From assembly GCA_001661245.1 (NCBI GenBank), contig KV454011.1, positions 1,652,041 to 1,716,040 on the forward strand: DNA of 64,000 bases, read 5' to 3'. This document shows positions 5,155-54,649 of this stretch, in pieces. A model generated the notes under the pieces. It did not search any database and was not told the origin of the DNA. It saw only the letters and a list, made by a program, of their open reading frames with translations. The position numbers and the translations under genes are program-made. Each line of letters starts with the position of its first letter. Positions within the stretch are counted from its first letter, which is position 1. Source of the stretch: Pachysolen tannophilus NRRL Y-2460 (Eukaryota).

Positions 5155-6842
5155 AAAAAAATTCTCCCTTAAAATAATAAACCCACTATCAGTAAAATTA
5201 TTCTATTAGATTAGCTTGAATCCATCCATCTAAGATAATCCTATATTATTATAGTATATAATTTTATATTCTCTTAACTTTACTTAAATTCATCATCATC
5301 TTCTTATAAATTTAGTGTAAAATAAACGACCACAATTTTTCAATCATTTTTCTTAACACGTTTAAATTTTCTTTTCAAAAATAAAGAAAATTCAATACTG
5401 AATAATTGAATAATTAAAATAGAGAACAATTAAAAAAAGAAAATAATTGATCCATTGAAGATATATTATAATAAGTTATGCCTAAGAAAAGTACAGCCAA
5501 GATACCACCTAGTGCATCTGTTCCAACAACTGCGTCGGTTACAAAACTGCAGACAGTGTCGTTATACCAAGAAGTAACAGAAGCAATTCAAGTATCGTAT
5601 AAATCATATTTAAAAGATATATCAACAAATAAAAAATTGAAAACACTTGATTTGTTTTTGGTTTTTTTAGTGCTGCTAGGGATAGTACAATTTGTATTTT
5701 GTCTATTGATTGGAACTTTCCCCTTCAATGCATTTTTGGGTGGGTTTATTAGTACTGTAGGACAGTTCGTCCTCACAGTTTCATTGAGATTACAGTCTAC
5801 CGACGAGGAAAATAAAATCTTTAAAGATATCAGCCCGGAAAAGGCATTTGGAGATTACGTTATTGCCAGTTTAATATTGCATTTTGTCGTTATCATTTCA
5901 TCNNNNNNNNNNNNNNNNNNNNNNNNNNNNNNNNNNNNNNNNNNNNNNNNNNNNNNNNNNNNNNNNNNNNNNNNNNNNNNNNNNNNNNNNNNNNNNNNNN
6001 NNNNNNNNNNNNNNNNNNNNNNNNNNNNNNNNNNNNNNNNNNNNNNNNNNNNNNNNNNNNNNNNNNNNNNNNNNNNNNNNNNNNNNNNNNNNNNAAAAAA
6101 ATTCTCCCTTAAAATAATAAACCCACTATCAGTAAAATTATTCTATTAGATTAGCTTGAATCCATCCATCTAAGATAATCCTATATTATTATAGTATATA
6201 ATTTTATATTCTCTTAACTTTACTTAAATTCATCATCATCTTCTTATAAATTTAGTGTAAAATAAACGACCACAATTTTTCAATCATTTTCTTAACACGT
6301 TTAAATTTTCTTTTCAAAAATAAAGAAAATTCAATACTGAATAATTGAATAATTAAAATAGAGAACAATTAAAAAAAGAAAATAATTGATCCATTGAAGA
6401 TATATTATAATAAGTTATGCCTAAGAAAAGTACAGCCAAGATACCACCTAGTGCATCTGTTCCAACAACTGCGTCGGTTACAAAACTGCAGACAGTGTCG
6501 TTATACCAAGAAGTAACAGAAGCAATTCAAGTATCGTATAAATCATATTTAAAAGATATATCAACAAATAAAAAATTGAAAACACTTGATTTGTTTTTGG
6601 TTTTTTTAGTGCTGCTAGGGATAGTACAATTTGTATTTTGTCTATTGATTGGAACTTTCCCCTTCAATGCATTTTTGGGTGGGTTTATTAGTACTGTAGG
6701 ACAGTTCGTCCTCACAGTTTCATTGAGATTACAGTCTACCGACGAGGAAAATAAAATCTTTAAAGATATCAGCCCGGAAAAGGCATTTGGAGATTACGTT
6801 ATTGCCAGTTTAATATTGCATTTTGTCGTTTATCATTTCATC
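5155..6842. repeat. Near-identical ~750-bp direct duplication (5155-5902 and 6095-6842) on either side of an N gap (5903-6094)
   Basis: The only differences I found between the copies are homopolymer lengths. The first copy contains an OST2 ORF (from 5478) that runs into the gap. Probably overlapping contig ends. Confidence 0.9.
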
Positions 6843-29247: not shown

Positions 29248-29649
29248 NNNNNNNNNNNNNNNNNNNNNNNNNNNNNNNNNNNNNNNNNNNNNNNNNNNNN
29301 NNNNNNNNNNNNNNNNNNNNNNNNNNNNNNNNNNNNNNNNNNNNNNNNNNNNNNNNNNNNNNNNNNNNNNNNNNNNNNNNNNNNNNNNNNNNNNNNNNNN
29401 NNNNNNNNNNNNNNNNNNNNNNNNNNNNNNNNNNNNNNNNNNNNNNNNNNNNNNNNNNNNNNNNNNNNNNNNNNNNNNNNNNNNNNNNNNNNNNNNNNNN
29501 NNNNNNNNNNNNNNNNNNNNNNNNNNNNNNNNNNNNNNNNNNNNNNNNNNNNNNNNNNNNNNNNNNNNNNNNNNNNNNNNNNNNNNNNNNNNNNNNNNNN
29601 NNNNNNNNNNNNNNNNNNNNNNNNNNNNNNNNNNNNNNNNNNNNNNNNN

Positions 29650-29734
<85 letters not shown>

Positions 29735-29758
29735 TATATNTNTTNTNTNTNTNTNTTN

Positions 29759-38453: not shown

Positions 38454-40226
38454 TTACAAAAAAACCTCTGCATTGATTTCAACCGATGAGCAGGCATAAG
38501 GTATATCAAAAAAACCTAAAGTTTCTGGGTGTAAAACACCAATAGCTCCAATATGCTGAGCTTCTCCGTCTTTTTTAGCTCTGAAGAAAATTTTAGCTCC
38601 TCTGCCAGGGAAGAAAGTCTGATTAGAAGAATCTTCTGTAATCCAATATCCTCTTTCACCAGAGCTTGGATCAATTAACCATGGAGATCTCATAGTCTGC
38701 ATTATTTTACCTAATAAACCTTGAATATATTCGAAACCTGAAGTTTTTCCAGCGTAAATGGCAGCCCAATTTCTTTGGTTAAATGCTCCTCTCTCCAATT
38801 CCGGATTTTTAAGAACAATATCACCACTTTCAAAAACTTTGATTGGCAATGAATGTTTTCTATTTTCCTTAATGGTTTTCAATATACCTGGCAACAACGT
38901 TGTTCTAACAACTTGGTATTCAAAAGTTTTTGGATTTGCTAATTTAACTGCCTGTGTATTATCGTCAACCTGTCTCAAAAATTTGAAATTTTCATCATGT
39001 GAACATAATGTTAATGGCATAACTTCCAACCATCCACTTTGAGCGGTAGCTAACCTCAAGACATCAGCAACTTTATTAATAGCTAAAGGAGTAGCAATTA
39101 ATGATGTTCCAGCATTAGCAGTTTTCTTTAAGTTGTTGTAACCATAGGCAATAGCGGCATCTTCCATAATATCACATTGATGTAAGATATCAGGTCTAGT
39201 AATTGGAATTTGAACATCTAATATATTATTATCTTTAGAAGAAGGTTTGGCATGCAATGACATTCTCAAAAGCAATTTAGATATTTCTTCACCAGAAAGT
39301 TGCAAGCCAAGACAAGAGTTAATATATGAAATTTCAGCTTGCATTGTTCTTGGTTCAATATTAGGGAAGACACGAGTTTCACCATTGTGTTCTGATATAA
39401 TCTTAACAGGTTCAACTGTAAATGGATCATCACAGTATACGGAAAACATAGCAACTAATTGATTAACAACAATTTCTGCTTTTGTTCTATCAGTAGCAGT
39501 GATATCAAGAAAAACGTTCCTTGTGTTCAAAGTGATCTTTGAATGATTAGAGTTAATAATTGGAGGTAATGAGCAAACAGTTTTATTTGAATCTAAGATA
39601 ACTGGATAAACATCAGAATCTTTAATGATGTGCAAGTATTTACCCAAATTTTTATCATTTTCATAAAATTCCATCAACTGAGTACCATTCATCTCCTTGG
39701 TTTGATTTAAAGGGACAAATTTGATTTCTGATGGTGGTAATGCTTCATAAGTGAAAGGTGGTTTTAAAGTATCTAAATCATGAGTACCCATAGCGACCAA
39801 AGTTCTATTACGACACAAATTAGTATGTAATTTGTCCTGTAAAGCAATAAATGATTCGTAACTTCTTTGAGTGAATTTAATATTCCTCAAGATAGCCGCT
39901 GCTGCGTATGGACGAATTTTTGAAGTTGATTCTTTAATAGTCATTGTAATTTCTGGTATTGGAGGAGACAATTTAAATTGTGCTGGAGGTTTATTACCTA
40001 AAAATTCATTAAGAGCCTGTGCAATACCTTCAATACACAACATATCATATCTATTAGCTGGAATTTCAATCTTCAACTGCGGCCTTTCTCCAGCAGAACA
40101 TTCATCAGTGGTATCTTCATCCAATTCTATACCAAATTCAAAACATAAATTATCAAAATCTTCAGTACTATACGTCTTACCTAGTAAGTTGTATAAATCT
40201 TCCTTATCAACGGCGATGGTAGGCAT
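38454..40226 (-). CDS. FRS1: Cytoplasmic phenylalanyl-tRNA synthetase beta subunit
   Basis: [54 protein letters not shown]. Confidence 0.97.
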
Positions 40227-40527: not shown

Positions 40528-42486
40528 TCAAGCTCTACTGTCCGAGCTAGTTAAATGACGTCGTATGTGAGCAATTCTTAGTTTTGAAAGTTGCCGCTGG
40601 GTTTCGATCTCGTCATCAGGGTAATGTCCAAAACTACCATTATCACCTTCTGTTACATCACCACCGTATTCTGATAAACACAACAACAACAATTTCAAGT
40701 TGCCCAATAAGTTCCTGGGATCCAGAATACCTCTTACTCCGACCACTTCTAATAATTGTTCTATGTTTTTCCCCAATAAAATCAAGCCATACTCGAATCT
40801 ATGTATACTGTTGATATTGTCTTTGCACCATAAGGGAAACAATTTCGAGTTTTTCAATTGAGAAATTGGATCACATATATAGGAATTTGAGCCAAAAGGT
40901 TCTATTGGGTATCTTAAAGGTATGGCCAAATAATGCGATAATAGGAAAACTAATTGCGTAATGAAATTCAATACGGCACCTATTTGTAAGTCCATTGTCT
41001 TTGTCATCCATTGTGGATTAATTTTTGATGGTAATCTATAATTTAAAATCATAAATTCATGAGGCATACTTTTAACTGGTTCAATTGGAAAAATTTCCAA
41101 TAATTTTGAAGAAACTTTTGATCTTTCTTTTAATAACTCATTGTTTATATCATCCAATTTATTTGCTTTCAGACCAAATTCATCTCTTAATGTATATAAA
41201 TGTTCTTTTTCAATTGATAACTCAACTAATGTATCTTTAACTTGTTGTTTTCTAGATGTTATCGATGACAGTTTTTTCAAATATTCTAGGTTTAATTTTC
41301 TAACTTTTTTCGATTTAGATTCTATCTCTACTTCAATTAATTTGATTTTAACAGTAATATCCGTTTTATTCATTGATGTAAATTCTTTTTCCCGAAGAAT
41401 TTCCATATTTTTCTCTATATCCCGAGATATTGTAATTTTACTCTTTTCTGAATCTCGTATAAATGATTGTAAATTGTTCAACTTTAAAATATGATCAAAT
41501 GATGCTGATAAAATGGGCCTTATTGATGATGCTGCTGAATTTGTTCTATTACTCTTTCTATGTTTACGAGAACCATCATCTCTTTTCTCCTGATAACCAA
41601 TTCCTAAAAAGAAATTTTCAATTGGAATTAAATAATAACCATCGGTCAAGACAACTAACACCATATTTTCATCTTGTAATTCTGATTCAATTAATTCTTC
41701 TCCTAAATATCTTAACATTGACAATATTAAATCTATCCTTAATAATAAAATCCATCCATTATCTTTACTATGTTCTTTGCACCATATCTTTATTCTTAAT
41801 GTTTCAAATTCGCTGTATTTTAAACTGGAAAAATCAAACTCCATAAAATTAGGATTCATATTTTGTTCCACCACTTCGCTAACATAAATAGGTTGTTCAC
41901 TATTAACTAAATGTATTGAGAAAAAAGTATCAACTAATCTTGACTTATTCAAATTTTGTAATCGTATTTGCTTTTCAACTGGATCATTTGATCCTATTAA
42001 TTTAGCAGATTTTTCTAATTCTTTCAGTAACATTGAATCACTATCACTATTTTTATCATGAACGAATGAATCTTTATATGAACTTTGTAAATGCATCGTA
42101 CTTCTTGTTAAATTTCTTTGTTTCAAAGATTTCAAACTCTTTGAGTGAGTATTTGTGACATTTTTCTTCTCATTAATCACATTTATATTGATATTACGTA
42201 AAAGTATACTCCTTAGCTGCTTTAATTTCTTCTTTAAAATCAAAAACACACACAAAAAAAAAGAACATAAATTAAAAATAATAAAAGTTAGTTATTAATG
42301 ATTCAATTTTTTTCTATTGAATTCATATTAAACTTGAAATAAACTTACTGGCCGTGGTCGTATAAGCCGATGATTTAAATTATTTGTTATCGATTCACTA
42401 TTTGAAAACGAGTTATTAAACGGAAATGACGACTGATTAACTACTGGCGAGGATGGTGTAGATTTTGACATTCTCTTGTTTTCCAT
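40528..42486 (-). CDS. VPS38: Vps38/UVRAG subunit of PI3K complex II; exon 1 42486 (or 42471)-42349, intron 42348-42232, exon 2 42231-40528
   Basis: KKLKQLRSILLRN, FFSIH...YVSEVVEQNMNPNF, coiled coil, PLRYP, FPLW, FEYG..LL.KNIEQL. Intron GTAAGT...AACTAAC...AAG joins the two exons in phase 0. Confidence 0.85.
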
Positions 42487-42815: not shown

Positions 42816-43514
42816 ATGGGGAATTTTATGATTTGTTTGTCTCACTTTTGTGAAATACATGGGCCCTCTATAGTGATGTGTACCCAATCATTTAAACTGG
42901 ATAATATCAATAAATTAGATAACAATGCTTTTTTATCTTCTTCAGCACCATCATCAGCAACTTGTTTGTCATGCCAACTTATATTACCGACATCATCGCC
43001 TTCAAACCTGATAAGAACTATTGATGAAGAATCTCATTTAATTTTCATATCAACACAATATCCATCTTCACAATCAAGATATCGTGCTTTAAGACAAATA
43101 GTCATGAAAGCGCTTTCCGTCGAGACAACTCATGATGGATTGAACCCTATAATGTTTGGTGATTCAACTCTGGGATATTCAATAACAATGGTTTTCAAGA
43201 TCAAAGACTCAACTGCAAGAGGTTCAGAGAGAAAATATGCATTGATAATAACTGCAGAAGACGAAAGTGAATTGGTTCATTCATGGAGTTTAGTAGTAGA
43301 AAATTTAAGAGAATTTATTAAATTAATTAAGGACAGAATAACCGAATTAGAATTAAGTAAAACAATGAATAATACAGAACTAATGGATAATAATGAAAGA
43401 TTTTATAGAAGAAGTTTACCAAAATCAAAGAATTTAACAGAGTTATTGGAAGATAAAAAATTATTCATAAAGATACACCTTTGGGCATCAAATTTATTGT
43501 GCAATTTAAATTAA
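42816..43514 (+). CDS. LST7: Folliculin homologue Lst7
   Basis: LSHFCEIHGP...CTQ, C.SC, FISTQYP, FGD, D.TARG.ERKYAL. Confidence 0.92.
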   Translation: MGNFMICLSHFCEIHGPSIVMCTQSFKLDNINKLDNNAFLSSSAPSSATCLSCQLILPTSSPSNLIRTIDEESHLIFISTQYPSSQSRYRALRQIVMKALSVETTHDGLNPIMFGDSTLGYSITMVFKIKDSTARGSERKYALIITAEDESELVHSWSLVVENLREFIKLIKDRITELELSKTMNNTELMDNNERFYRRSLPKSKNLTELLEDKKLFIKIHLWASNLLCNLN

Positions 43515-44364: not shown

Positions 44365-46338
44365 TCATCTCTTCCATGACCCCAAAAAATGACTGGCTAA
44401 ATCTTTTGCTGAAAATCTTTTAGGATTAGAGCTAGAATTATTATTACTCAAGTCGTCGTCGCTGGAATTAAGTTTGAAATCAGTATTACCATTTCTGACG
44501 CTATTATCATTATTGGTAAACTTACTGCCATTGGAACTAGTTATCATGGATCCTCCACTTCCACTTATTGACCTTTGTAAACTTTCACCTAAAATATTTT
44601 GATGATGGTGTTGGTGCTGATGTTGCGATTGAGGCTGTTGAGCACCATCGAGATTACTATTCTCATTGTTTTTAATGATTTTCTGATCATCGCATGTTTC
44701 TTTATTGTTGGTAGCATCTTCATCTTCGTCTTCACTATCAAACAAAAAAGAAGTTTTAATTTGGCCAGAAACAGAGGTATTAGATTGATATGGGGGTAAT
44801 GGTTGTTGTGGATTAGTTATATTGATCCCACTTACTTTCCCACTCGGTGAACTATGGATTGTGTCTGCATTAGCGTTAGAGATGAATGATGATGATACAG
44901 CCGAATTGGTCCCCGTGTCAACTGATTGATCACTGATGGTTGTGGTACTACCGTTCTTACTATCATTTGCATTCGGAGTGGTAACATAATTATCAGCAGC
45001 CCTTAATGTAGCGTTTGAAGCCGAAGGGGTGATAGATAATGGTGATGGTACTATATCGATTGGTTTACTCACTGCTTTTGTTGATGTCACTGGGCTATGA
45101 ACATCTTCAATATGAATTAATGAGCCCAAATCTAAATTATCTGGCAAGTCATACACTTCTAAATCGTTATTTTGTGTAACTATATCGTTTGCTGAGGTAT
45201 CATTTGTATAGATTGAGTTATAATTATAATTGTAATGATAATCATAATTTCTATTTGTATTAACATTGTGAGAAATTCTGTTTGGATATGGGTTTTCATA
45301 ATATGAGGAATAATAAGTAGGTTCTTCAACTTTATTATCTATATCTTCATCTTCATCATCAGTAGAATTATACTTCAATTTGGCATTCGGTAATAGTTCA
45401 ATAATGTTGTAAAAGGGCTTACTGATTTTGTGAGAAGCAGAAGAAATTAATGTATTTTCATCACTACTGCTATCATTATGTGTTGTAGTAGTACTATCAT
45501 TACTATTTGCCTTTGCTAATTTTTGTTGTTGCAAATGTTTCATATTGGCCATAGAGTTTGATTTAACATTTAAGAAAAATCCGCCATCCTCATCATCCTC
45601 ATCATCTTCTTCTTCATCAACATTTTCAGAATCATTATAAAGTCCACCTTCATCATCAGTGTTGTAACCACCTTGGTAAACCACTTTTCTACCTCCTTGA
45701 TCATCTTCGTAATCAAAATCTTCTTCATCGGATGAGGGAATATCAACAGCAATGCATTGCTCCACTTTTTCATTAAAACGAATGTGACGATCTTTTTTCG
45801 GCTGGGAATTACTTGGCGTTGAAAAAGATGACTTTTTAGTTATTGCACCAATGGAATCTGAACTTTCTAAATTCATATTTGAAATTGTTGGTGAACTCAA
45901 CAGGTTTTCGTCATCAGTTCTATTGGCACTGTTATTAAGATACGGGCTATTACCATTGCTATTATTATTATTATTATTATTTTGATTGTTAGTGTAGTTA
46001 TTGGATTTATTATTTTCCTTAACAACTGGTGGCGATTGGCGGTGTGTGCGTTGGTGGTAATGGCTTGGAGTAGTAGCCTCCAAGATGGGGCTTCCAGTTT
46101 TGTGATGGCTATTATGATGATGAGCTTGAATTATTGATAACTTCATGAATTCTGCTTGTGATAACATCATCTCAGCAGCAGTTCTCTTTTTCAATATTGG
46201 CTTAGGTCCTTTTTTATTATTAGGTGTCTTGCACTTATTTTTACTTGTGCCATACTTATCATTAACAACGCTGTTCTCATTGTTGTTGTTATCATCATTA
46301 ATATCATTGTCATCATCATTATAATCATTATCATCATC

Positions 46339-46373
<35 letters not shown>

Positions 46374-47130
46374 TATTATTATTATGGTTATTATTTTTAT
46401 TATTGTTATTATTATTATTATTTTTACCACCGCTAAGCAGCGGTGATGCCGAACTTGCTTTAATATTTTTCAAATCTTTCTTTGGAGATAATTCATCAGT
46501 TAAAAAATCCGAAGCACCAGGCTCTTTATATAACGGACCATACAACCAAGTGACTTCACTATCTTTTAACCAGTTAACAGATTCTGGAGACACGGTTTTT
46601 AATTTATACTTTGCCTGTGCCCAAGTTCTCCATGAAGCATTTTCCAATCTTGCACTATTTGCAACATCTTTTCTTTTCATAACAATATACTTCCAAGATT
46701 TCGAGATATCAGATTCTTTCCAATCATGAGATAAATAATCAACATGGGATTGTGGTTCATAAATCAAATCGTTATCATCATGAGGAAGTAATTCTGGTGA
46801 AACCAATACCGAAGATGAAGAACTTGAAGACGTTGCCACCGAAACTGGAGACTGCACATTATCCTCCCGATCACCCACCAGCACTTGAGATTGCTGTTGA
46901 CGTCCTTGACTGCTCTGTGACTGGTAATCACCTTCATCATCATCTTCATCACTACTATCTGAATTATACAAAATCGACCGACTCCTAAATTGCAGCGGTC
47001 TATTATTTCTTTGGTTAAAATTTTTACTATTGTTATTACTACTGTTTGATGTATCAATCTTGGGCAACCGATGTTTCAACTCTGATGAAGATGGATTATA
47101 ATAATTTTGGTTTTTTAATCCATTTTTCAT
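44365..47130 (-). CDS. REG1: Reg1, Glc7/PP1 regulatory subunit, lacking its conserved N-terminal ~100 aa
   Basis: HVDYLSHDWKESDISKSWKY...RLENASWRTWA...VTWLYGP domain, KPILKKRT, PP1-docking RHIRF. The KRTRS(M/L)GLL block is missing from this ORF. Confidence 0.92.
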
Positions 47131-47618
47131 TTAATTTTTGTTTTTTTTTTTATTTTTTTTGACTGGTTTCTTTTCTTTTACTTTTTGCTTGTTAACTTTT
47201 TTTTTTCTTTTTTAAATTTTTTTTGTATTTGTTCTCTCTTTAAAAAGAAAAGACAGTTTGATTATATTATTATTATCGAATTCATCATCAACTGTCAAAA
47301 CATATATCTAAATGCCGTCGTCGTATAAGAATCTAGCAGAGGTATTTCAAGGAGGTGCTACTACTTCGCAACACGTTGAAGCTAAAGATGATGATCATTT
47401 TGAGAATACTACTTTTAGATTGAAAAGAACTAGATCCTTGGGTTTGTTGGATGATTTCATTGCACCTACCCAAAAATTGATTGATGAAGATTTTGTTTCT
47501 GATGAGACTGTGAAGAAGATAAATAAATCTGTTTCTGATCTGAATTTAACCGCCCTGCAACCCAATGATGGGAATAATGATAATGTTAATAATTATACTC
47601 CAATTTTGATCAATGAAA
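47124..47618. other. Inverted 495-bp segment carrying the REG1 5' leader and first 102 codons
   Basis: Re-inverting it fuses the two REG1 parts in frame and regenerates a 9-bp inverted repeat ATTTTCATT/AATGAAAAT at the ends. Confidence 0.85.
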
Positions 47619-47629
47619 TAAAACGATGA
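47312..47629 (+). CDS. REG1: Detached N-terminal fragment of Reg1 (105-aa ORF, opposite strand)
   Basis: VEAKDDDHFENTTFRLKRTRSLGLLDDFIAPTQKLI matches the recalled S. cerevisiae Reg1 N-terminal block VQAKNDDDFHKSTFNLKRTRSMGLLDEYIDPTKKLL. Confidence 0.85.
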   Translation: MPSSYKNLAEVFQGGATTSQHVEAKDDDHFENTTFRLKRTRSLGLLDDFIAPTQKLIDEDFVSDETVKKINKSVSDLNLTALQPNDGNNDNVNNYTPILINEIKR

Positions 47630-48349
47630 TAAATATAAAAATGGTATAACTAATTAACAAATAAAAATAAAAATAAAAACAACTTTATATTTAATTATAA
47701 TAACTTACTTTACTCTTTAACTCACTCACTTATTTTATTTTTTTCTTGATAAATGTTATTATTACTTTATTCTGCCTTTTAGTTTAGGTTAAAAGATAAT
47801 TTAATGGACTTTGGTCGTGGTGTACACGACCCGTTTTATGTATGTAATTTTTGTTGAAGTTTCTCCGCCTTACGCCTTACCAGCCTCCAGAAAATTATTA
47901 TTATTGCTCGATACGGATACACACAGAGAAAGAAAGAGAGAGAGAGAGTAGAAAGAGAGAAAGAAAGAAATATTAGATATCAGATTTTCGAATTAAATTT
48001 ACGACTAACTCAAAGATTTGTTAATGAATTTTTTTCTTATTTTTATTTATTGAAGGAAAACCCCATGTAGGGAAACAAAACAACAAGAATTAATATTATT
48101 TTACCGTTACGTTTAGCAGAAACAGTAGCACATGTGGTTTAGGTTCTTGTTACTTTTATTTATTATTTGTTCCATTCTATATATAGAGAAAAGTAAAATA
48201 GTTTTTCCGGAGTTAAATTCTCTTCGCGCGCGCGCGGATTTACTTTAAAATTTCTTTTTCAATTTTTTTCATTTTAGTTTATTTTATTTTTTTTGTCCAA
48301 GTATACTATACTATACTTACTTACTTGGAAGTGAAAAAAAATATCTGGT

Positions 48350-50557
48350 TTATTCTTCTGCGGATCCATCTGATTCTTCTTCTGCTTCTGCTAACCATTC
48401 TATCCATTTGCTTGCGACTTTTCTTGTATTTTCGTCCTTGCCGGCGTAGCCCTCTTGATTCCACCATTTTAAGATATTGACTTCATCTAGGATGTCATTA
48501 TCGTATAAATCATTTAAAGCTAATGTAAATATGGTGGGTCCATTATTATTTGGTAATTTGGAACATAATGATTCCAAAATATTTAACAAGTCGACTTGTT
48601 CTTCATCTTCAAATACTTGTCTTTTAAATAATTGCCCCCATTTACCAAAAATCTTGTGTACCGAATCCTTTACACCTAAAGTTTGAGTATTAATAAAATG
48701 TTCAATCCTTTGTAATAATGCAGTGCAAGTAGCAAGTCTGACATCATGATAAGTTACATTCATTGACATTCTTAAAGTATTTAATTCTAGTAAAGCGGTA
48801 TCCAAATCATGGTTATTTTCCATTGCTCTTTCCACTGTGGCAATTGCTTCCTTATTGAAGTCTTCCTCATCATCTTCTTCACCATCTGTATTATTATTAT
48901 AATCATGTTCTGCATCAGTTGCTGTAGCATGACTTGCAGAAGAATATGTTCTTCTCTTTTTGCGGCGATTAGGCATCGATGAAACAATTGAAGTATCTGA
49001 AAGATATAATTCATCCAATTTATAAACAAGACCATGATAATGCTTAGAAGAAGAAGAAACCTCATCATCATCGTAATCTCCATATTCGGATTCAGAATCA
49101 TACAGAAACCCAATACCATTTTCACCAACAATAGCAGGATCATTAACTGCACCTTCATCAACTTCAACAATATTTTCTTTTTCTTCTGCAGCTCTTTTTG
49201 CTTGAATATCCTGATAAAATTCATCATCACTAGATAATGAATCTCCAATATAAGATGAATCTGAAAGGTGTTTTACAGGTCTTTCAACAATTCTTGTATT
49301 TTCCAGAACAATCACATTATCACCTATTACAACATTGAAACCAATTACAGACCCAGAATTTAATTTTACATTTTGATTTATAACCGAATTAGATGCAACT
49401 ATAGAATGCTCAATCTGACAATTGTCCTTAATAATTGAATTATCCCAAATATATGAATTTTTAATAATAACATTAGTTCCAATTTGACAATTTCTTCCAA
49501 TAACCGAGTTTTCAACTTGACTCAGATCACCAATAAATGAATTGGATCCAATAACAACACATGACCCAATTTTACAAGACTGTGAAAGTCTAATATCCTT
49601 TTCTTTATAAATATGTTTCGATTCATATGTATACGATTGATCTTCTAAAAGATTTGAATCGGGTGCAATTGGATAACACCATCTTTCTAAAATATCCTGA
49701 GAAATTGCATCATATGTTTGCCAACTTTCAACTCTTGCTGCATAGTCTTCATTTGTAATATAAGCATATATTGTTTTTTTTAAAAGGTCAGAAGATAATG
49801 TACCACGTACAAAATCTCTTCTTAAATATTGATAATCAAAATTCTCCTGAAAAATCACAGGAACTAATGGAGAACAAATATCAACATGACAATCAATTAA
49901 ATCGTTTCTAATAACAAATTCATCAACATCTTCCAATAAGTCAGGATCCACTGAAATCGAAGCTTTTAAACCATTAATCGATGGAATATCTTGATAGTAG
50001 AGACATCTATCTGTTTTCTTATCTAATATAAAAGTTGAAGGTACCGATTGAGACCTTGTTCTATGTAAAGGAGATGCCTGGGTTAAAACCATTGTAACTA
50101 TATGGTCCTTATCAATTAAACGCCTTTGTCTATGTGCACTTAAGACTTCATCAAATTGTATATTGGTAACAACATCCCCTGAAACCAATAAGAAGTCTCC
50201 AGTTATTAACCCTCTATTATCTAAATCTCTCATTGCATCTCCAACAGACCTAGATTCTAATGACATTATAGTATTTATTTTAAAAGGTGAGCCGGCTTGA
50301 TTCCATTTTGAACCATCAATATACGTTTGAACCTTATCTGCATGAGAACAACACATCAAATAAACCTCATCAACACCAGCTTTAGCTAAAAACTCCAACG
50401 TATACTCAATCAATGGGACATTACACAAGGGAAGAAGACATCTTGGCTCAACTGAAGTTAAAGGCATAAACTTTGTCTCGTACGAATCAGTTAGCACAAT
50501 AGCCTGAAGTCTCTCATCTTGTACAATCTCTTTCTGCTTCTTGTTTTTGGGCAGCAT
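48350..50557 (-). CDS. GCD6: eIF2B epsilon subunit
   Basis: LQAIVLTDSYETKFMPLT...PRCLLPL, left-handed beta-helix repeats, LELNTLRMSMNV, W2 domain WIEWLAEAEEES. Confidence 0.96.
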   Translation of the reverse strand: MLPKNKKQKEIVQDERLQAIVLTDSYETKFMPLTSVEPRCLLPLCNVPLIEYTLEFLAKAGVDEVYLMCCSHADKVQTYIDGSKWNQAGSPFKINTIMSLESRSVGDAMRDLDNRGLITGDFLLVSGDVVTNIQFDEVLSAHRQRRLIDKDHIVTMVLTQASPLHRTRSQSVPSTFILDKKTDRCLYYQDIPSINGLKASISVDPDLLEDVDEFVIRNDLIDCHVDICSPLVPVIFQENFDYQYLRRDFVRGTLSSDLLKKTIYAYITNEDYAARVESWQTYDAISQDILERWCYPIAPDSNLLEDQSYTYESKHIYKEKDIRLSQSCKIGSCVVIGSNSFIGDLSQVENSVIGRNCQIGTNVIIKNSYIWDNSIIKDNCQIEHSIVASNSVINQNVKLNSGSVIGFNVVIGDNVIVLENTRIVERPVKHLSDSSYIGDSLSSDDEFYQDIQAKRAAEEKENIVEVDEGAVNDPAIVGENGIGFLYDSESEYGDYDDDEVSSSSKHYHGLVYKLDELYLSDTSIVSSMPNRRKKRRTYSSASHATATDAEHDYNNNTDGEEDDEEDFNKEAIATVERAMENNHDLDTALLELNTLRMSMNVTYHDVRLATCTALLQRIEHFINTQTLGVKDSVHKIFGKWGQLFKRQVFEDEEQVDLLNILESLCSKLPNNNGPTIFTLALNDLYDNDILDEVNILKWWNQEGYAGKDENTRKVASKWIEWLAEAEEESDGSAEE

Positions 50558-50820: not shown

Positions 50821-52440
50821 TTAACAATATGTTTCGAATTCTTTAATTGACTTATCCAAGTCAAGTTCAAAATCAAGAAGATCCTCATTGTAGAATTTTG
50901 CCCAGTCATTATCATATAGTTTGTTTAAGTTTGCCATGCATTCATTTTCTCTTGTAAGCATTAACTGATAGTAATCATTCAAGTCTTTAGTTAAGCTATT
51001 ATGCAGGTTTAAATTTTTATTTAATTCAAGTTTTAATTGGAAAAATTTTTCATCTTTCCTATCATCATTGAACTTGATCAAGTTTGTCAACTTGTTTAAG
51101 TTTGTCTGACTGATGCTGTTATTATTCAAATCAGAGAGTTGACTTTTTAAATCGTTTATGATATCATACAAGTTTTCACGTTCTTCACTATCTTCAAATT
51201 CTTGTAAATGTCTTGATTTCCTAATTTCTGTATTATTCAATTTTGCAACATTTGTAATTCTCTTGGTTAAAGTTGCATAACGTAAGCTGCTATAAGTTTC
51301 TTCATAATCTGTAGGAGAAATACAACATATCATACAACTTTTCGAATTTCCTCCAATAGATTCTTTTAGCAACCAAGTTAAAGTGGATTCCCTATAAGGA
51401 ACCATTTGCTTTTTCTGAGAAGTGGCATTTTCTGATAATATAGTCAATATTCTACCTAATGAAGTTAAAGATTTGTTGATATTAGAACCTTCTTTAAGTC
51501 TTAACCCAACATTACCTGTATTACTTGTCCTTTCAGATCCTGCCAAATCGACTAATCGTAAATGTGAAATTTTTTCTTTAATTATTTCATTTATCAAATA
51601 TTCTTTTTGATGTATTTTAATACTGAAAACTGCATGAGATCTTGAAGATCTCGAATTTGATTTCGTGGATGCTGTTTTCCTTTTTGAATTCCCTCTATTT
51701 AAATATTTAAAAATTTCTTTTGTTGAATTAATTTCAATCTCATTTAAATTTTCAACAAATGGTAATCCTTGAAGATTTTCTCTAATTCTTTTCTTTGTTG
51801 TAGTTGAATTATCTAGTAAATCAAATACATCTTCATTATAAATTTCAAAAAAACTGATTGTTATTTTGATAGAAATATTTTGCTCCTGAAGAATCCCAAT
51901 CTCTTTAAATAGGTCACTAGTTATCTTTGGTATTAACCCATCATTATCTCCAAACATTGTATAAGATTTACCTGAACCCGTTTGACCATACGCAAAGATA
52001 CAAGTATTATATCCTTCTAGCGTATGGTTTAAAAACTCCTTCCCACAACAATTGTAAACCGAATCCTGATCAGCATACTCGTTATACCCATTTTCATTAA
52101 ATGACCATAAACAATTATCAAAATAAAATTTCTTAAAATCATTACTACTGATAGGATCCAGGTTCTCATAAGAACTCGGATTTTCATAATAATCTCTGGG
52201 CAAAAGTATAGTGGTACTGTTTTCCATCTTAATAAAGCAGTTCTCATTATTAGTGTTGGTTGACTGTCTAGCTATGAGCGGTCTCACTCTGACAATTACT
52301 CTTATACTATTGTTTGATTTATTATTAACACAGCTATTTCGTATCTTACCAAGTTTCAATGGTGGGACTGAACTACCTGAGTCCAAATTTCCCTCAGATT
52401 TTTCTACCTGAAAACTCATAGAGTCACGAGCCTCCGCCAT
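50821..52440 (-). CDS. Short kinesin-3 family motor (Nkin3/UncB type)
   Basis: FDNCLWSF, GYNTCIFAYGQTGSGKSYTM, SSRSHAVF, LVDLAGSER, YRESTLTWLLKESIGGNSK; short coiled-coil tail, no FHA or PH seen. Confidence 0.8.
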   Translation of the reverse strand: MAEARDSMSFQVEKSEGNLDSGSSVPPLKLGKIRNSCVNNKSNNSIRVIVRVRPLIARQSTNTNNENCFIKMENSTTILLPRDYYENPSSYENLDPISSNDFKKFYFDNCLWSFNENGYNEYADQDSVYNCCGKEFLNHTLEGYNTCIFAYGQTGSGKSYTMFGDNDGLIPKITSDLFKEIGILQEQNISIKITISFFEIYNEDVFDLLDNSTTTKKRIRENLQGLPFVENLNEIEINSTKEIFKYLNRGNSKRKTASTKSNSRSSRSHAVFSIKIHQKEYLINEIIKEKISHLRLVDLAGSERTSNTGNVGLRLKEGSNINKSLTSLGRILTILSENATSQKKQMVPYRESTLTWLLKESIGGNSKSCMICCISPTDYEETYSSLRYATLTKRITNVAKLNNTEIRKSRHLQEFEDSEERENLYDIINDLKSQLSDLNNNSISQTNLNKLTNLIKFNDDRKDEKFFQLKLELNKNLNLHNSLTKDLNDYYQLMLTRENECMANLNKLYDNDWAKFYNEDLLDFELDLDKSIKEFETYC

Positions 52441-52768: not shown

Positions 52769-54649
52769 ATGTCTGAAAATTTCCAGGAACAAGAAGAGAA
52801 ATTGAATACTTTTAAGGAAATCACTTCTTATGCGGAAGAGGATCATTCCAAGATATTAAAATTATTAAACGATACAAACTGGAATTTGGAAATTGCAATC
52901 CCACGATATTTTGATGGTAATTTTGAAGAAGAACCGATTGAAATTCCATCATCTAGTGGTAGTGTGAATGGAAGTACGAATGGAAGTGCAAGAAATAGTA
53001 TTAATGGTGGTGGGATAGCGACGGGTGTGGAGATGAATGATACTAATGGGATTTCTGGTTTACGGCAAACTTCTCATAGTTATAGTAATTTAAGTAATAG
53101 TTTTATAGATGATCCATTCAATGATGTATTGCCCAAGTTACCAAAGGCCATTTTAATTCCAAATAATTGGAAATTTAAAGTGGGTTTAGATCGTCATGGG
53201 CAGCAGCTGCAACAACAACACCAACAATATCAAAATCAAGATCAAAAATTCACCATTTTTTCTCCCTTGGTTTTCATCTTGTTATTTATTCCAAGAACTT
53301 TATTATTTTTAACTACAGGAATTGGGCGTTTATTAGATTATGTATTTCCTGGTTTGTTAAATATTTTCAGATTTGAGAAAGGACCAGATGATTTCCCATC
53401 TGAACCATTATATAATGGGAATCAATCATCTTTCCAAGATTTCTATGATGAGATAATAGATTTTAATAAGGAAATGATTGGAGAAAATAAAGAAGAAGAA
53501 CAAGATGAACAGAATCAAGATGCAGGCTCTGATAGTACCAATGGTAGATTAGAGTTTTTCGATGGAGAATTTAATGAAGCATATAATTTTGCAAAAAATA
53601 ATTTTAAATGGTTATTAATAATTTTATGCAATGAATCTTATAAATCACAAAATATGATTAAAAAATATTTAAATAATGAATCGTTTAAGAAATTTATTTC
53701 TGAAAATAATATTATTATATGGGGTGGTGATGTTAGTTATCTGGAACCTTTTGAAGTTGGATCTGTATACAAAGTTAAAAAATTACCTTATATGGGACTT
53801 ATTGCCAATGTTTCAACATATGGAAGAACAATGCCATTAATGTCTATAGTTACCAAGATTACATTTGCTGAAGGTATTGTTGATCTTTCATCAAAGAAAT
53901 TAATTAAGAAATTACAAAAATATATTGATCATTATGAGCCACAATTAATAACTCTTCGTTATGATAAACAAGAACAAGAATTTTCGAGATTAATTAGACA
54001 AGAACAAGATAGTGCTTATCAAAGATCATTGATGAATGATAAATATAAAGAACAAGAGAAACTGAAGAAAAAAGAACAAGAATTATTGAAACAAAAAGAG
54101 GAAGAATTGCAAAAAATAGAAAAATTAAAACAGGATAAGATAAGAGAAATATTTTTAATGGAAAATTGTATTAAATTATTTGGAAATAATAATGAAAATA
54201 ACAATAAGGATTTTTTCCAAAAGGGAAATCATACAACAATTCAATTTAGATTAAATACTGGTGAAAGAATAATATCGAAATTTTCCAAAGATAAAACTTT
54301 GTTTGATGTATATTTATTTGCAGAGTGTAAACTTTTTTTAACCCATAAAAGGCAAAAACTTTCAAGAGATAACGAAGAAGAAGAAGAAGAAGAAGAAAAT
54401 TTTAATTTCATTTTAGATTTTTTCAAAAAATCCATTGAATCCCATAAAAAAGAGATTAACGATATCAATGGTATTAATAATTATAAACATTTTTTCAAAT
54501 TTCAATTGATTCAACCAATGCCCCGCTATCTTTTAGAACCGAACAACAATATTAAAGTTGCCGATGTAAAAGAAATCTGGCCAAATGGAAATCTTTTAAT
54601 TGAGTACGACGTTGAGGACGATGCAGAAGAAGAAGAAGAAGAAGAATAA
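52769..54649 (+). CDS. UBX2: Ubx2 (FAF2-like) Cdc48 adaptor
   Basis: N-terminal UBA-like EKLNTFKEIT...WNLEIAIPRYFDG, hydrophobic hairpin, UAS domain, EQDSAYQRSL coiled coil, C-terminal UBX (IQFRL..G.R, WPNGNLLIE). Confidence 0.87.
   Translation: MSENFQEQEEKLNTFKEITSYAEEDHSKILKLLNDTNWNLEIAIPRYFDGNFEEEPIEIPSSSGSVNGSTNGSARNSINGGGIATGVEMNDTNGISGLRQTSHSYSNLSNSFIDDPFNDVLPKLPKAILIPNNWKFKVGLDRHGQQLQQQHQQYQNQDQKFTIFSPLVFILLFIPRTLLFLTTGIGRLLDYVFPGLLNIFRFEKGPDDFPSEPLYNGNQSSFQDFYDEIIDFNKEMIGENKEEEQDEQNQDAGSDSTNGRLEFFDGEFNEAYNFAKNNFKWLLIILCNESYKSQNMIKKYLNNESFKKFISENNIIIWGGDVSYLEPFEVGSVYKVKKLPYMGLIANVSTYGRTMPLMSIVTKITFAEGIVDLSSKKLIKKLQKYIDHYEPQLITLRYDKQEQEFSRLIRQEQDSAYQRSLMNDKYKEQEKLKKKEQELLKQKEEELQKIEKLKQDKIREIFLMENCIKLFGNNNENNNKDFFQKGNHTTIQFRLNTGERIISKFSKDKTLFDVYLFAECKLFLTHKRQKLSRDNEEEEEEEENFNFILDFFKKSIESHKKEINDINGINNYKHFFKFQLIQPMPRYLLEPNNNIKVADVKEIWPNGNLLIEYDVEDDAEEEEEEE

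Follow-up and report, generated by a model that had tools for sequence, protein, structure and literature searches.

The REG1 locus and its neighbours

The window analysed here is the whole 64,000-nucleotide stretch of contig KV454011.1 from the yeast Pachysolen tannophilus NRRL Y-2460, which has a G + C content of 30.6%. A gene of the REG1 type is present within it in two pieces that lie on opposite strands. These pieces, the DNA around them, and the neighbouring genes, which were named from Pfam matches, are as follows.

38454-40226, minus strand: PheRS beta
40528-42096, minus strand: Vps38/Atg14-like gene
42816-43514, plus strand: folliculin/Lst7-like gene
44365..47130, minus strand: REG1 body open reading frame (ORF), 921 codons and a stop, N terminus MKNGLKNQNYY, with PF08550 and RHIRF inside; identical to P0003
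47131..47311, plus strand: REG1 5′ flank carried along with the N-terminal block, 181 bases, 58% T, with T runs of 8-11
47312..47629, plus strand (opposite to the body): REG1 N-terminal block, 105 codons and TGA, MPSSYKNLAEVFQGGATTSQHV...RTRSLGLLDDFI...TPILINEIKR; annotated as P0123
47630..48349, no strand assigned: remainder of the old REG1 upstream region, ending at the 3′ end of the eIF2B-epsilon-like gene
48350-50557, minus strand: eIF2B epsilon
50821-52440, minus strand: kinesin
52769-54649, plus strand: UBA-UBX protein

The neighbours between 38454 and 54649 look intact by Pfam, and no other split gene was seen among them. The window contains 603 N, in gaps that are far from REG1. These gaps lie at 5903-6094 (192 bases) and 29248-29649 (402 bases), and the second is followed at 29740-29758 by nine single Ns alternating with bases, as at the low-quality gap edge of scaffold-level sequence.

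The 921-codon ORF is assigned, from its domain, its motif and its homology, to the family of Reg1/Hex2 regulatory subunits of protein phosphatase 1 (PP1; Glc7). PF08550 (DUF1752, GATA_AreA-like) is matched at residues ~144-172 with an E value of 1.7e-11 and 44.2 bits against a cut-off of 20.9. The product has 1360 matches at E<=0.001 in the protein collection, many of them named REG1 or resistance to glucose repression protein 1. At residue 448 (45789-45775, KKDRHIRFNEKVEQC) the body contains RHIRF, a predicted RVxF-type PP1-binding motif. The RHIHF/RHIRF motif and DUF1752 are both described as functional landmarks of REG1 in a study of Saccharomyces cerevisiae (PMC12520357). The second in-frame Met of the body is residue 151, within WKYIVM (residues 146-151). 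A further feature of the family, the conserved N-terminal block (GGATTSQH...KRTRSLGLLD), is not at the start of the body polypeptide and is found on the opposite strand.

This block is the 105-codon ORF, the product of which corresponds to the first ~100 residues of Reg1 homologues. Among the homologues listed, 115 of 119 carry it at their own N terminus (E<1e-5, with the match beginning no later than residue 90 of the subject); the four listed without an N-terminal match to it are P0023, P0108, P0097 and P0122. The segments GGATTSQH, DDxHF, and KRTRSLGLLD are conserved in all aligned homologues and are all kept in the block, where there is no frameshift or stop. Residues ~34-47 include F-R-L-K-R-T-R-S-L-G-L-L, which is invariant or nearly so in 14 aligned homologues. 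Around its Ser there is a hydrophobic residue at -5, a basic residue at -3/-4, and a hydrophobic residue at +4, a pattern that we take to fit the AMPK/Snf1 site consensus and to resemble a 14-3-3 site.

Alignment with the 14 homologues places the N-terminal block and the body against each other, with no large part missing: the block runs out in a variable linker and the body begins just ahead of ELKHRLPKI. The closest relative in the collection, P0004, is one fused protein in which ELKHRLPKI comes right after its own N-terminal block. REG1 is split in the assembly, with ~0.49 kb (~490 bases) of DNA, comprising 181 bases of 5′ flank and ~102 codons, flipped with respect to the remainder of the gene. 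That this DNA is inverted in the assembly, how the two pieces relate to their homologues, and which frames they use are all direct results. Public sources list the two pieces as separate proteins, P0003 (921 aa) and P0123 (105 aa). A reading in which an intron or trans-splicing connects the pieces is excluded, since they are on opposite strands.

The two joints and the reading frame

Each edge of the flipped segment falls in a short zone that contains a run of A, and the features of these zones are listed below.

47120..47131, minus strand: left joint zone, AATGAAAAATGG, with a five-A run and AATGAAA, the first copy of the 7-nt inverted repeat
47128..47130, minus strand: left-joint ATG, first codon of the shortened frame, context AAATTAAATGAAA
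47133-47131, minus strand: in-frame TAA immediately 5′ of the 47130 ATG
47612..47619, plus strand: right joint zone, AATGAAAT, with a three-A run and the second copy of the 7-nt inverted repeat

The minus strand from 47130 to 47120 is ATGAAAAATGG, in which the length of the A run, read directly from the letters, is five. Near the 3′ end of the 105-codon ORF, the plus strand from 47613 to 47619 is ATGAAAT, with a run of three. Because TAA at 47131..47133 closes the body frame, the left break must lie at or below 47132, and stop codons from 47627 onwards similarly place the right break at or below 47628.

A preliminary description of this DNA had reported that REG1 is split by an inversion, with runs of A5 and A3 at the joints and an ATG at 47130 that is in frame with the body and opens 921 codons. 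It had also placed the next in-frame Met inside WKYIVM, and noted that the body keeps RHIRF and has lost the N-terminal block. All of this agrees with the letters, as does its statement that a version with four A would read ATG AAA ATG GAT TAA. The same description went on to propose that the two runs arose from A4 + A4 by a crossover that slipped by one base, and that the resulting register was selected.

Possible ancestral arrangements were examined by scanning conservative flips of segments [L+1..R], with L from 47075 to 47135 and R from 47540 to 47631, for a single ORF extending from the native ATG to the REG1 stop. Within these allowed zones, an ORF of at least 900 codons was restored by 1672 of the 5612 flips. 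Flipping 47125..47617 gives a single ORF of 1021 codons that reads ...TPILINENGLKNQNYY..., so that TPILINE is followed directly by NGLKNQNYY. This is the A4 + A4 ancestor, and the same sequence results from any of four breakpoint pairs, (47123, 47618) to (47126, 47615). No base is gained or lost, and there are 3 nt (AAA) of microhomology, or ambiguity, at the junction. Since the eight A are conserved in total and are split differently by two staggered cuts, the A5 + A3 arrangement needs no slippage. The A4 + A4 ancestor of the preliminary description is therefore a valid reconstruction, whereas the slip is made unnecessary by the conservative flip and the ancestor is not unique among the 1672 flips that restore the ORF. 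The slipped crossover is one possible history among many equally valid reconstructions.

As an example of another reconstruction, a flip of 47131..47626 is also in frame, joining INEIKR to MKNGLK, and the ATG would then be an old internal Met. The one flip that exploits all 7 nt of AATGAAA in register can be drawn with 8 equivalent breakpoint pairs, and it is out of frame. The A4 + A4 class is one of 75 classes of size four (3 nt of microhomology), and a further 43 exceed it in size. Because the linker lacks conservation, comparison with homologues gives no means of deciding between these breakpoint models. The likeliest coordinates for the flip are ~47125-47617, with an exact base that cannot be placed. 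Compensating homopolymer errors, +1 at one joint and -1 at the other, were also considered and were judged unlikely, although this is an estimate only.

The repeat at the joints and the frame of the ATG were each compared with chance. Inverted matches between the break zones reach 7 nt at most (AATGAAA). Shuffling both zones gave a match at least this long in 726 of 1000 trials, as did 37 of 86 control pairs drawn from other parts of the window with size and spacing kept equal. A 7-nt inverted repeat at these joints is within chance expectation. In simulated inversions of the A4 + A4 ancestor, one break was drawn from the linker (codons 72-116) and its partner from the upstream 919 bases; of 122227 such inversions, 18545 (15%) gave the body an in-frame ATG located before ELKHRLPKI. 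With the repeat and the frame at chance level and T at -3 of the ATG, selection of the register, as proposed in the preliminary description, is unsupported: random inversions give an in-frame ATG in 15% of cases, and 1672 of 5612 flips restore the ORF. For the same 15%, the match in frame does not discriminate between a real event and a misjoin, and the earlier argument that it favours the former fails.

The flanks of the segment were also examined for long inverted repeats or a recombinase site, and what lies there is the 7-nt exact match and imperfect pairs only. The imperfect inverted pairs at the joints are 23-34 nt long and A/T-rich, and none of them is placed at both joints. For example, 47135-47160 and 47656-47682 form pairs of 23-24 nt that are 88-91% complementary, probably as an effect of composition; the arm at 47135-47160 is just inside the inverted segment, and the arm at 47656-47682 is ~30-55 bases outside the right break zone. 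With 7 nt as the longest exact inverted repeat, a programmed invertible switch is very unlikely.

Start codon, expression and function

The new ATG has the context TAAATG, with T at -3 and not the preferred A; among 24 long ORFs of the window, 15 have A at this position, 5 have G, 3 have T and 1 has C. TAAATG is also the context of the native REG1 start. Within the 510 bases upstream of 47130, the only minus-strand ATGs are at 47285, 47288, 47303, 47398, and 47460. As there is none between 47284 and 47131, a transcript starting in that interval would meet 47130 as its first AUG. On the minus strand, 47131-47284 is the A-rich complement of T tracts in the old REG1 flank, and tracts of T11, T8, T10, and T8 are found at 47141-47224, inside this former 5′ flank. 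Divergent transcription from a poly(dA:dT) region is plausible for yeast promoters. Production of the body would require transcription to begin within the ~150 A-rich bases upstream of it, for example divergently, and the 105-codon piece would keep its own flank, which is predicted to be core-promoter-like.

In the arrangement of the assembly, full-length Reg1 would no longer be encoded, and a Reg1 product without the conserved N-terminal block would probably behave as a weak or null allele. In S. cerevisiae, the REG1 start-codon mutants M1R and M1I act like nonsense or null alleles according to the 2-deoxyglucose study, so that a downstream start gave no functional rescue in that species (PMC12520357). 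The same study describes 72 spontaneous mutants in the REG1 complementation group, with promoter, start-codon, frameshift, and internal-duplication alleles, which points to REG1 as an easy target of disabling mutation (PMC12520357). Selection and use of the start at 47130 are hypothetical. A search of sequencing runs with words sampled from 46200-48400 found no RNA run among those listed.

Origin of the split arrangement

Further evidence on the locus comes from other copies of the sequence. The 86-aa partial protein P0124 is encoded on a contig of 385 bases whose source is given as Pachysolen tannophilus NRRL Y-2460. Its identity to N-terminal block residues 1-66 (window 47312-47509) is 100%, and it then continues with 20 diverging residues, a tail that matched nothing in any frame of the window; P0124 was rejected as a spliced model of the same DNA on these grounds. 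Its divergence at 47509/47510 is at neither joint, and it shows neither arrangement. Either P0124 is a chimeric leftover from assembly or it marks a third junction at the REG1 locus; it points to conflicting sequence there, which an assembly problem or a mixed culture could have produced. Apart from P0124, the protein collection contained no second REG1 copy from the same species at 506-1612 aa, below 506 aa or at 57-184 aa, and a 41-nt stretch of the block gave 0 matches in a metagenome scan. Five sequencing runs from two studies contained 0.91-0.92 of the 226 words sampled from 46200-48400, shares that cannot resolve the joints since only ~3 words touch each of them. A literature search returned no paper joining Pachysolen and REG1.

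The reading that we favour, which seems about equally likely to hold or to fail, is a real and recent inversion of ~0.49 kb with two breaks, in which the ATG came into frame by chance. We infer its mechanism, recency, and consequences for expression from the features above. The event would be recent since the N-terminal block keeps all of its conserved residues with no frameshift or stop. Two breaks would have allowed the REG1 5′ flank (181 bases) and the first ~102 codons to turn with respect to the rest of the gene, and the ends were probably sealed through end joining or template switching, with 0-3 nt of microhomology, rather than through homologous crossover. Homologous recombination needs more than an 8-nt repeat. 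The 47130 ATG would derive from the antisense strand of the old 5′ flank in the A4 + A4 model, or from an old internal Met in the other in-frame models, and we propose that it is in frame by chance under either origin. A real inversion is consistent with joints at which no inverted repeat is long enough to confuse an assembler (7 nt exact; best imperfect pairs 23-24 nt and A/T-rich), with the lack of N near 47100-47650, and with the separate annotation of both pieces in public sources. It also agrees with a block that matches homologue N termini (115 of 119 listed), abuts the body in alignment and gives 1021 codons when flipped, and with the frequency of spontaneous disabling REG1 mutation in S. 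cerevisiae (PMC12520357). However, a perfectly conservative flip is also expected from a misoriented piece of sequence, and the window is a scaffold with N gaps, to which scaffolding steps were therefore applied. Against a real inversion stand also the repeat of residues 1-66 in P0124, followed by its divergence, and the lack in the protein collection of an independent second copy of REG1 from the species. An artefact of assembly is accordingly a substantial possibility, if on balance a somewhat doubtful one: a piece of ~0.49 kb would have been misoriented and merged without Ns, REG1 in the living strain would be intact at ~1021 codons, and the ATG at 47130 would be meaningless. It would explain why flipping the segment back, with no base gained or lost, yields a flawless full-length ORF in which every conserved residue is present and the block is undecayed, and it fits joints that abut low-complexity A/T runs (the T tracts at 47141-47224 and an A-rich run at 47656-47682), the gapped scaffold, the presence of REG1 as one polypeptide in 115 of the 119 listed homologues, and a 385-base leftover contig that duplicates part of the segment and then diverges. 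Nevertheless, the joints offer no repeat that would mislead an assembler (7 nt exact, 23-24 nt imperfect) and no N that marks a contig join near 47100-47650, and the leftover contig diverges at 47509/47510, at neither joint, with the un-inverted order not shown.

Selection has a place in two further explanations. In that of the preliminary description, two 8-nt copies (ATGAAAAT) underwent an exchange offset by one base, and selection kept this register for the start codon that it gives a working, N-terminally truncated Reg1, a reading that we consider quite improbable. Its ancestor, A4 + A4, has the neatest repeat and is in frame; PF08550 and RHIRF are kept in the body; 47130 is the first ATG for transcripts starting at 47131-47284; and the TAA at -3 to -1 equals the native REG1 start context. 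These points are set against a repeat no better than chance (7 nt reached in 726 of the 1000 shuffles and in 37 of the 86 genomic control pairs), a total of 1672 in 5612 flips that are equally in frame, 75 classes of the same size as A4 + A4 with 43 larger, and an in-frame ATG in 15% of random inversions. The null-like start-codon mutants of S. cerevisiae REG1 also speak against it (PMC12520357). Moreover, a selected one-base slip would add little, as with one sequence it is indistinguishable from chance. It is hardly credible that this is instead a maintained split gene, with both pieces expressed divergently from a shared poly(dA:dT) region, both acting in trans or separately, and the N-terminal block under selection. 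The block ORF is indeed intact and fully conserved, its flank is T-rich and then A-rich in the manner of a core promoter (as predicted), and both pieces are annotated as genes, but an intact ORF is expected equally from a very recent event or an artefact, P0004 and 115 of 119 listed homologues are one fused protein, and the split is seen in no second genome. A related proposal, highly improbable in our view, is that of a real inversion in the type-strain lineage of this classic xylose-fermenting yeast that left two divergent units driven from one poly(dA:dT) region: a 105-residue peptide that carries a perfect AMPK/Snf1-type site, L-K-R-T-R-S-L-G-L-L, and a body without the site. If it were true, a PP1 subunit would be uncoupled from Snf1 feedback, shaping glucose/xylose handling. 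What remains is something more complex, for example the third junction hinted at by P0124.

Several known systems resemble the recent inversion that we favour in part. In the mating-type flip-flop inversion of methylotrophic and related yeasts, an inverted chromosomal segment alters which genes are expressed. Flip-flop systems of this type are programmed and reversible, and use long inverted repeats, whereas the longest exact inverted repeat here is 7 nt. Closer in gene content are the loss-of-function reg1 alleles from 2-deoxyglucose screens in S. cerevisiae, which lie in a gene of the same family and strike the corresponding region of it (PMC12520357). In contrast to these, the change here inverts 0.49 kb at the 5′ end, in another yeast and in a reference-type assembly. 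In Candida albicans, a rearrangement at 8-bp repeats in SNF1, which is part of the same Snf1/Reg1 pathway, is reported to have given an altered but working protein, an outcome of the kind proposed in the preliminary description (PMC6584375). That case, as described there, involved direct repeats and a deletion of 6 residues, with a phenotype that was selected and tested (PMC6584375); the present one has inverted repeats at chance level and a loss of ~100 residues. Set against these cases, the locus adds another REG1 allele that is disabled or truncated by a structural change of an ordinary type.

The two leading explanations have different consequences. If the inversion is real, the reference sequence holds a broken or shortened master regulator of glucose repression, which bears on work on sugar co-utilisation, and the locus is a natural allele for probing the role of the conserved N-terminal block of Reg1. 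If it is an artefact, the public gene models of 105 aa and 921 aa are to be merged into one REG1 of ~1021 codons. As a minor observation on the models themselves, both CTG codons of the 105-aa ORF are translated as Ala in the public record; a code in which CTG is Ser was rejected on this basis, and the translation fits table 26.
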